Part shown: positions 20,501 through 20,760 of the stretch, piece after piece
Layout: every line of letters starts with the position of its first letter
How positions within the stretch are numbered: the stretch's first letter is position 1
Assembly: GCA_964644465.1 (NCBI GenBank)
Contig: CAZXVU010000005.1
Location: forward strand, 1 to 39,606
Direction of reading: 5' to 3'
DNA from: an uncultured bacterium
GTDB taxonomy: Bacteria; Chlamydiota; Chlamydiia; Chlamydiales; SM23-39
DNA length: 39,606 bases
The notes under the pieces: model-generated
The model's input: only the letters and a program-made list of their open reading frames with translations
Database searches by the model: none
Told to the model about the DNA's origin: nothing
Made by a program: the position numbers and the translations under genes

Positions 20501-20760
20501 ACAAAAATAACAGGATCGGCTTCGCCGGCAGGATCGCTCGCTATGCTCGCGGCAGGATAAAAAAACAACCAGGCCACCGGGCGCAAGCGGAGCTTGCAAC
20601 TGCGCCTTCTGCGCAGCATCGACCTTCGGTCGAGCCCGGTGGCCCTGTCTTAACTATCCTACAGCACGCCATCAGGCGGGCGTATCCTGTCCCACTCGCT
20701 TGCGAGTGGGTTATCCTGCCAGCCTCGCAGAGCGAGGCGCATCCTGTAATTTTATATTGT
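20501..20760. other. GC-rich multibranched palindromic element (structured ncRNA or REP/BIME-like DNA element)
   Basis: Three CAGGAT and four ATCCT(G/A) repeats separated by hairpins; 11-bp GGCCACCGGGC/GCCCGGTGGCC stem enclosing three hairpins. Confidence 0.7.

Follow-up and report, generated by a model that had tools for sequence, protein, structure and literature searches.

Di Nocera 2013 (PMC3733652) describes the unit of repetitive extragenic palindromic (REP) sequences as an imperfect palindrome of 20-40 nt whose head, for example GTAG, is conserved. Here we compare with this and related systems an element that lies between the genes sdaA and pfp in an uncultured bacterium of the Chlamydiales (GenBank assembly GCA_964644465.1, contig CAZXVU010000005.1, positions 1 to 39,606; this whole stretch of 39,606 nt is called the window below). 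The element resembles REPs in being extragenic and multi-copy, but its conserved unit, (A/G)CAGGAT, stands in arrays and is not a REP palindrome. Its ends match arrays that frame GxxExxY genes in many phyla, which argues for an undescribed kind of selfish DNA and not for an RNA gene. [quoted passage not shown]

The closest described systems in logic are the REPIN-RAYT systems (RAYT, REP-associated tyrosine transposase). There as here, a single small gene is framed by inverted repeat copies, gene-free hairpin-forming repeats are present in many intergenic copies, and within one genome the variants of the repeat agree with its gene copy. Unlike in those systems, the gene here encodes a GxxExxY protein of PD-(D/E)XK fold and not an HUH Y1 transposase. 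If this protein acts on the repeats, its candidate recognition part would be an array of 6-7-nt units at about one helical turn, and not one 20-40-nt palindrome. Closest in build are the bacterial interspersed mosaic elements (BIMEs) of enterobacteria and the BOX elements of pneumococci, mosaic repeats that combine conserved motifs with variable modules and are extragenic, often at gene 3' ends. Their sequences are unrelated to the present one, in which the modules lie between direct hexamer repeats and the arms are inverted arrays.

MITEs are alike in being short and non-coding, with terminal inverted repeats, loci that are either filled or empty, and derivation from a gene-bearing parent. 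They differ in that our searches here revealed neither a regular target-site duplication nor a parent with a DDE transposase, only GxxExxY genes between such ends. The ends of Tn7 and Mu carry several binding sites, and TnsA of Tn7 is a PD-(D/E)XK nuclease. As in those elements, each end here has several direct short sites, the two ends are inverted and unequal (3 on the left vs 4 on the right), and the nuclease has a restriction-enzyme fold; however, the units are 6-7 nt and not ~22 nt, the single gene of ~115-135 aa has no DDE partner, and the element measures only ~0.1-0.5 kb. Free-standing homing endonuclease genes, which include PD-(D/E)XK examples, are likewise small nuclease genes inserted selfishly between host genes without target duplication, but they have neither repeat-array arms nor many gene-less copies.

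An inserted, dispersed element

The element is an insertion. An sdaA query was matched in 16 of 41 related genomes, a set that includes the source genome (G000), and the position of pfp was then compared. Empty sites were found in six relatives (G022, G002, G030, G040, G007 and G025), in which sdaA and pfp overlap or lie within ~40 nt of each other, typically as TAAATG; G022 is 85% identical to G000 over the sdaA C-terminus. In G000 the two genes are separated by 382 nt. The ~500 nt between them in G001 (L030 ~2890-3390) contain a different palindromic element with inverted GCAAAGACG-type arrays, which is an independent insertion at the same junction in a related genus, and the GCAAAGACG-type unit also frames a GxxExxY gene in G039 (L019). 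In addition, the spacer of G036 is ~280 nt long with another inverted repeat, and G029 and G039 each have ~1 kb of extra sequence at this position.

The sequencing runs found to contain this DNA were four DNA runs of one soil-metagenome study, and no RNA run was among them; 95% of the sampled words are present in run X1. One contig from X1 covers 20352-20784 with no differences. In another, 20483 is followed by 7 other letters and then directly by 20761, and the insert is therefore taken to be 20484-20760, 277 nt. The repeats and hairpins reported in an initial annotation of this DNA are present as claimed, and only its extent of 260 bp was slightly narrow. Filled and empty forms seem to coexist in this one sample. 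Read depth over the element is many times that of its flanks, as expected for a repeat. Between the insert and the pfp start lies an A/T-rich spacer of ~100 nt (20761-20862), in which 20793-20811 form the hairpin CAAAAATG-ttc-CATTTTTG. The contig without the insert shares no fewer than 52 nt of this spacer.

The source genome comprises 2.18 Mb in 183 contigs and is 94% complete; the window is its contig C5. BLAST against G000 identified four large relatives of the element, on C38, C76, C136 and C53, with 71-86% identity, and eight further copies of one 31-nt module. The element is thus multi-copy with homologues, and not the single copy without homologues that the initial annotation would have taken as a decayed relic. 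Runs of at least three CAGGAT units in the same orientation within 60 nt occur 42 times in G000, compared with 0, 0 and 3 such runs for three control hexamers, two of which are commoner overall than CAGGAT. We counted about 21 paired forward/reverse elements including that of the window. They are non-coding, have terminal inverted repeats and span 59-308 nt between the outermost units. Their common plan is a (G)AAAATAA terminus, a CAGGAT run, an A-rich core, an ATCCTG run and a TTATTTT(C) terminus, the element termini being (G)AAAATAACAGGAT and ATCCTGTTATTTT(C). The units are separated either by 2-4 nt (mostly ATG, TTG or CAGG) or by small GC-rich hairpins. A distant BLAST search against plasmids gave no match to the element.

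No direct repeat of consistent length or position was found around the 21 elements. At the window locus, TAATTT is present at 20478-20483 and again at 20747-20752, and is indistinguishable from the A/T-rich terminus. A minimal form of the repeat on C48 (11989-12030) consists of one CAGGAT, a hairpin CGGCTCGCTTCGAGCGG and one ATCCTG; since such a one-unit form exists, counts based on at least two units understate the family. The 9.5-kb contig C80 houses at least five array elements, including a duplicated adjacent pair in opposite orientation (~807-1076 and ~3607-3877). An inter-unit module of the form CCCC-A/T-rich-GGGG is found on C4, C26, C52, C70, C80, C84 and C126. Wherever this long hairpin contains a C.A, A.C, G.T or T.G pair, as it does in two stem variants, the G.T wobble is on the ATCCTG-reading strand and the C.A mismatch on the CAGGAT-reading one; a copy on C37 has a C.T mismatch and a copy on C3 has none. 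This asymmetry tracks the polarity of the arm, and not one strand of the whole element.

None of the 21 elements lies inside a credible long open reading frame (ORF). In the few cases where an ORF of at least 120 aa overlaps an element, the frame either passes through the GC-rich element itself or is extended a long way upstream. Within 31 nt of the elements we found 24 ORF 3' ends and 5 ORF 5' ends, and the window element itself starts 3 nt after the sdaA stop codon. These positions would suit co-option by the host. The element could then terminate the sdaA transcript or stabilise it as a 3' structure, or it could be an array bound by a host DNA- or RNA-binding protein, such as a sponge for CsrA; CAGGAU resembles the CsrA-binding motif. 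Such a role is compatible with a mobile origin. However, selection against promoter insertions would be equally expected to produce the 3'-end bias, the locus works without the element in relatives, and CsrA (PF02599) was not found in G000 by a search that matched 3 of 14 control genomes. A sponge RNA of the CsrB/RsmZ type was rejected because of this missing PF02599. A promoter and terminator scan of 20300-21000 gave one terminator-like site (minus strand, in the central module) and no promoter-like site, both at the level of shuffled sequence. Overall, we consider a host function of this kind rather unlikely.

GxxExxY genes within the same ends

The link to a gene is provided by contig C125. 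On its left side this cassette reads GATTAAGAGAAAAATAA-CAGGAT-gg-CAGGAT-gga-CAGGAT, followed by ~450 nt with one ORF, and on its right side ATCCTG-tcc-ATCCTG-TTATTTTTTCTCTTAATC. The ORF matches Pfam PF13366 (PDDEXK_3) with an E value of 2e-30, and related genes match NCBIfam TIGR04256, 'GxxExxY protein'. The same genome carries a 90-nt gene-less twin of this cassette on C169, with near-identical arms, and a solo end on C147. The pieces AAAAATAACAGGAT and then GGCAGGAT are common to the window, the gene-bearing C125 and the gene-less C169, and the left arm of the window element reads like that of C125, its units being set apart by hairpins (AAAAATAACAGGAT / CGGCTTCGCC / GGCAGGAT). The window element shares the arm layout of GxxExxY cassettes, two or more direct (A/G)CAGGAT units in each of two inverted arms; it has three units on the left and three plus one degenerate unit on the right. 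No GxxExxY ORF lies between the window arms, where the core consists of 13 A-rich bases and a 73-nt hairpin module; we therefore class the window copy as a gene-less derivative. Elsewhere in G000, C49 ~1210-1830 carries AATGATATGAAGGAT twice per arm, and a third, solo copy of the array lies ~200 nt upstream.

To survey the relatives we used the array pattern CAGGAT-N2-4-CAGGAT-N2-45-CAGGAT. It was found in 11 of the 41 genomes, G000 among them, with five families represented besides that of G000, and the pattern read backwards was found in none of the 41. Inverted repeats flank 16 of 22 chlamydial PF13366 loci at E <= 1e-3 (6 are without), and these repeats consist of short tandem units whose sequence follows the protein subfamily, being CAGGAT, CACAGAG, CACGGAG, CACCGAG or CGCAGAG. 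A profile of the CAGGAT-type subfamily matched 6 of the 41 genomes at E <= 1e-25; all six are array-positive, and none of the 30 array-negative genomes matched. Inter-unit hairpins typify the arms in chlamydiae, also where these surround a gene; examples are CGCAAGCG, CGCCTTCGGCGG and CGGCTTCGCCGG. In G011 and G036 the arms around the gene carry CGCAAGCG and CGCCTTCGGCGG between the units, matching the other arrays of each genome.

Two further observations were made in these relatives. G034 has 67 PF13366 matches, mostly to the C-terminal part of the profile (~66-117) in 81-aa frames, and these look like a dispersed dead gene fragment. In G029 (C77:7076-7198) ~14 CAGGATGGA units stand head to tail, with a reverse array ~270 nt downstream, so that an array can evidently grow to many more than three units.

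The association extends to public genomes. One genome per species was scanned with a 4-sequence alignment of the subfamily and the best 80 of 184 loci were kept; 77 of these had enough flank for the repeat test, and 73 had at least 200 nt on each side. By title they come from chlamydial metagenome-assembled genomes, Geobacter relatives, Chloroflexota, Acidobacteriota, Armatimonadota, Brocadiaceae, Bacteroidota, Nitrospirota and others. Flanking inverted repeats (E <= 1e-3) were found at 58 of the 77 loci. At least two CAGGAT upstream together with at least two ATCCTG downstream were found at 41 of the 73 loci, and at least one of each at 62; with the orientation swapped the corresponding counts were 2 and 9, and the reversed motif gave 0 of 73. 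Among loci with non-chlamydial titles, 22 of 35 had at least two units on each side. The usual arm there is AACAGGGAT-nn-(A/T)CAGGAT-nnn-CAGGAT.

Across 18 chlamydial GxxExxY domains, residues G18, G20, E23, Y26, D62 and K74 do not vary, and E72 hardly does. From the alignment, these positions correspond to the GxxExxY motif and to a putative D...ExK nuclease motif. A sequence search for solved relatives of the protein gave none. An AlphaFold model was obtained with a pLDDT of 94.4 and a pTM of 0.85, and a fold search with it gave as best match 4ic1 (SSO0001; E 3.2e-4, TM 0.63), a Cas4-family protein. The next matches, with E values of 0.01-0.03, were lambda exonuclease, a related alkaline exonuclease and archaeal Hjc Holliday-junction resolvases. 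The predicted fold thus puts GxxExxY in the PD-(D/E)XK nuclease superfamily, without telling its substrate or whether its action is resolvase-like or exonuclease-like. In a 2012 survey of PD-(D/E)XK proteins, the function of GxxExxY (PF13366/TIGR04256) is given as 'Unknown' (PMC3424549).

These data bear on two other mobile readings of the element. According to the initial annotation, it could be a REP/BIME-like element mobilised by an HUH (Y1/RAYT) enzyme encoded elsewhere. The first half of this proposal agrees with our data, since the element is a dispersed, modular, extragenic and palindromic insertion, it is multi-copy, and most copies abut gene 3' ends, as REPs commonly do. The enzyme half is not supported. 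PF01797 (Y1_Tnp) was not found in the 94% complete G000 by a search that matched 6 of 14 control genomes. What is conserved is a unit of 6-7 nt that stands in arrays, and not a 20-40-nt palindrome; it is the hairpins that vary. In addition, the gene between the arms encodes a PD-(D/E)XK protein. Mobilisation by a RAYT is accordingly the reading to which we give the least credence, next to none.

Alternatively, the element may be a classical MITE of a DDE-transposase insertion sequence that is missing from the fragmented assembly, with GxxExxY as a frequent passenger. The terminal inverted repeats, small size, lack of coding sequence and copy number all agree with a MITE, and insertion sequences often fail to assemble, as might be the case here with 183 contigs. 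However, when the genome was scanned for AATAACAGGAT...ATCCTGTTATT pairs with up to 6 kb between them, none of the longer elements proved to have true arrays on either side. Candidates for such a larger parent on C48, C74 and C5 were discarded as chance single units. No regular target duplication was found, the arms enclose the GxxExxY gene and nothing else in C125, in G011:C26 and at the public loci, and the association of gene and arrays holds across phyla. We therefore judge a DDE-dependent MITE to be improbable, and continue with the reading of the element as a derivative of the GxxExxY cassette.

Structure of the element and the RNA reading

The features of the element and its neighbours are listed in Table 1. 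The initial annotation was accurate on the positions of the three CAGGAT and four ATCCT(G/A) units, on the side hairpins (of which that at 20691-20710 is a perfect stem of 9 bp) and on the perfect 11-bp stem (20572-20582/20634-20644) that encloses three hairpins. The outer helix that it described between AAAATAACAGGAT and ATCCTGTAATTTT is complementary at 12 of 13 positions, and the 22-nt arms are 82% complementary. The element is also GC-rich as stated, with 57.6% GC against 45.3% for the genome. The left-arm module CGCTCGCTATGCTCGCGG recurs at 8 other genomic sites with 88-94% identity, and the right-arm hairpins recur on C38, C76 and C136 with compensatory differences. The GC-rich hairpins between the units, which belong to the chlamydial version of the cassette, and the 73-nt module in the core together account for the branched-hairpin fold.

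Table 1. Positions in the window of the parts of the inserted element and of the two flanking genes
Feature	Position	Strand	Remarks
Whole inserted element, 277 nt	20484..20760	.	All 277 nt skipped by a contig of run X1
Left terminus AAAATAACAGGAT	20504..20516	+	Matches termini on C125 (gene-bearing cassette) and C169 (gene-less twin)
Left arm, three direct CAGGAT units (20511, 20529, 20553)	20511..20558	+	
Left-arm inter-unit pieces	20517-20527; 20535-20552		Hairpin CGGC-ttc-GCCG; module CGCTCGCTATGCTCGCGG
A-rich core segment AAAAAAACAACCA	20559..20571	.	Also in gene-less minimal copies
Central 73-nt module	20572..20644	.	11-bp closing stem and three hairpins, a four-way junction
Right arm, ATCCTA (20656, degenerate) and three ATCCTG (20684, 20713, 20741)	20656..20746	+	
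Right-arm inter-unit hairpins	20667-20678; 20691-20710; 20722-20738		
Right terminus ATCCTGTAATTTT	20741..20753	+	
sdaA (named by the initial annotation), 464 aa	19086..20480	+	Stop codon 3 nt before the insert
pfp (named by the initial annotation), 527 aa	20863..22446	+	Abuts or overlaps the sdaA stop codon in six relatives

The initial annotation had also suggested an undescribed structured non-coding RNA, that is, a gene whose branched hairpin is transcribed and functions as RNA. The element lies between two genes of the same strand and is probably co-transcribed with them, and its predicted fold is very stable: the plus strand folds as RNA at -132.8 kcal/mol (z -8.80 against dinucleotide shuffles). 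However, the minus strand folds equally well (-141.6 kcal/mol, z -8.97), and folding with DNA parameters gave -78.8 (z -8.17); in each of the three cases, 0 of 200 shuffles were as good. The equal folding of both strands was a first sign of a DNA palindrome and not of a strand-specific RNA. No Rfam family matched the element, with 0 matches at E <= 1 in 20440-20870, and ARAGORN predicted no tRNA or tmRNA in 20400-20900. The Rfam search of the window at gathering score returned nothing on the element and only a tRNA gene truncated by the window end (39556-39606; RF00005, 32 bits).

The central module is present in four intact copies in the genome and in a fifth, on C76, with a nested hairpin insert. 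Relative to the arms it points one way in C5 and C76 and the opposite way in C38, C136 and C53. In run X1, opposite-strand joints at 20571/20669 and 20573/20663 represent copies with an inverted centre. Both inversion between the inverted arms and independent insertion of the module would fit the two orientations, and the 73-nt segment behaves as a nested or invertible module. That 3 of 5 copies carry the junction the other way round with respect to their arms speaks against a single functional RNA strand, and the number and identity of the modules differ from copy to copy.

Hairpin pairing is maintained among the copies. In the four intact central modules 98.3% of the cells are paired, and 6 of 29 pairs are altered on both sides. 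The covariation score of 0.276 compares with 0.130 in shuffles, of which 0 of 500 reach 0.276, and sliding the partners by 1-3 columns lowers it to <=0.096. The arm hairpins are likewise compensated, for example GCCTCGC/GCGAGGC vs GCTTCGC/GCGAAGC. These two-sided changes would be expected of an RNA, but covariation does not tell at which level, RNA or DNA, the pairing is kept. Short DNA palindromes can be corrected and kept perfect by template switching during replication, and covariation is for this reason not specific to RNA. In addition, six relatives and one contig of the same sample have no insert at this locus, and among 151 genomes of the order G000 alone matched the closing-stem pattern of the central junction (an exact pattern, which diverged copies would escape). 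Taken together, the missing Rfam match, the equal folding of both strands, the variable modules, the two junction orientations and the empty locus in relatives make a structured RNA gene very unlikely.

Proposed mechanism and significance

Several results weigh against our reading of the element as a copy of a GxxExxY cassette. The C125 gene is frameshifted in the assembly, in a run of five T; as it is the sole CAGGAT-framed gene of the assembly, the family may have lost its mobility by now. A second GxxExxY gene, on C49 (1442-1783), is intact and is framed by inverted arrays of the different unit AATGATATGAAGGAT. Among the 11 array-positive genomes, 5 have no detectable gene of the subfamily, including G029 with 28 array matches and G032 with 33. 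Four of the six gene-positive genomes supplied sequences to the profile, which leaves only G000 and G022 as independent, and related genomes are not independent samples. No flanking inverted repeat was found at 19 of the 77 public loci, and no consistent target-site duplication around the 21 elements. The compensatory changes in the hairpins would also fit selection on RNA. The empty allele in the sample is represented by one contig at a depth of 3.1, with a shorter side of 52 nt and a likeness of 85%, and could be that of a close relative. The putative link between nuclease and arrays itself derives from their co-occurrence in sequence.

The full cassette has one GxxExxY gene (PD-(D/E)XK fold, PF13366/TIGR04256) between two inverted arrays of ACAGGAT units, which repeat every 9-10 bp in the arrays with short spacers. 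In the mechanism that we propose, we infer that the GxxExxY nuclease moves the element. It would recognise the unit arrays on both arms, possibly in a folded or extruded state in which the side hairpins protrude and neighbouring units regain their usual spacing of 2-3 nt. The nuclease may then cut at the arrays, and the cassette would be copied or moved without a regular target duplication. Gene-less copies may use the enzyme in trans, or may simply have lost the gene by deletion. That no regular target duplication was seen agrees more with a route based on repair or recombination than with DDE transposition. Any effect on the expression of sdaA or pfp would be a side effect of the insertion.

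A broader proposal, which we offer tentatively and regard as possible though not probable, is that GxxExxY proteins are the mobility enzymes of a widespread, undescribed class of selfish cassettes. They would read ACAGGAT-type arrays on cruciform or single-stranded DNA and move or copy the cassette without target duplication, and the gene-less chlamydial copies would be their REPIN-like satellites. If this is true, the side hairpins of the chlamydial copies would show that branched DNA is the active substrate.

In the literature outside subscription journals, we found no description of repeat arrays around GxxExxY genes. For chlamydiae, nothing was found on MITEs or palindromic repeats of this kind, and for any organism nothing related on ACAGGAT inverted repeats with a nuclease. 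Among the GxxExxY papers listed, which include PMC8934634, no title was on repeats or mobility. New here are the chlamydial gene-less form, decorated with hairpins and carrying an invertible junction module, and the six empty orthologous sites, together with a probable polymorphism of filled and empty forms within one sample.

GxxExxY proteins form a large family, for which the arrays offer a candidate DNA target that is open to testing and a likely role in selfish elements. The gene-less arrays spread through genomes and differ among members of one population. For annotation, they account for GC-rich, strongly folding intergenic stretches in environmental chlamydiae that look like RNA and could otherwise be called as novel non-coding RNAs. 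With regard to genome evolution, inserts of this type can separate two genes that overlap, as with sdaA-pfp, a junction that has been entered by two different array elements in two genera.

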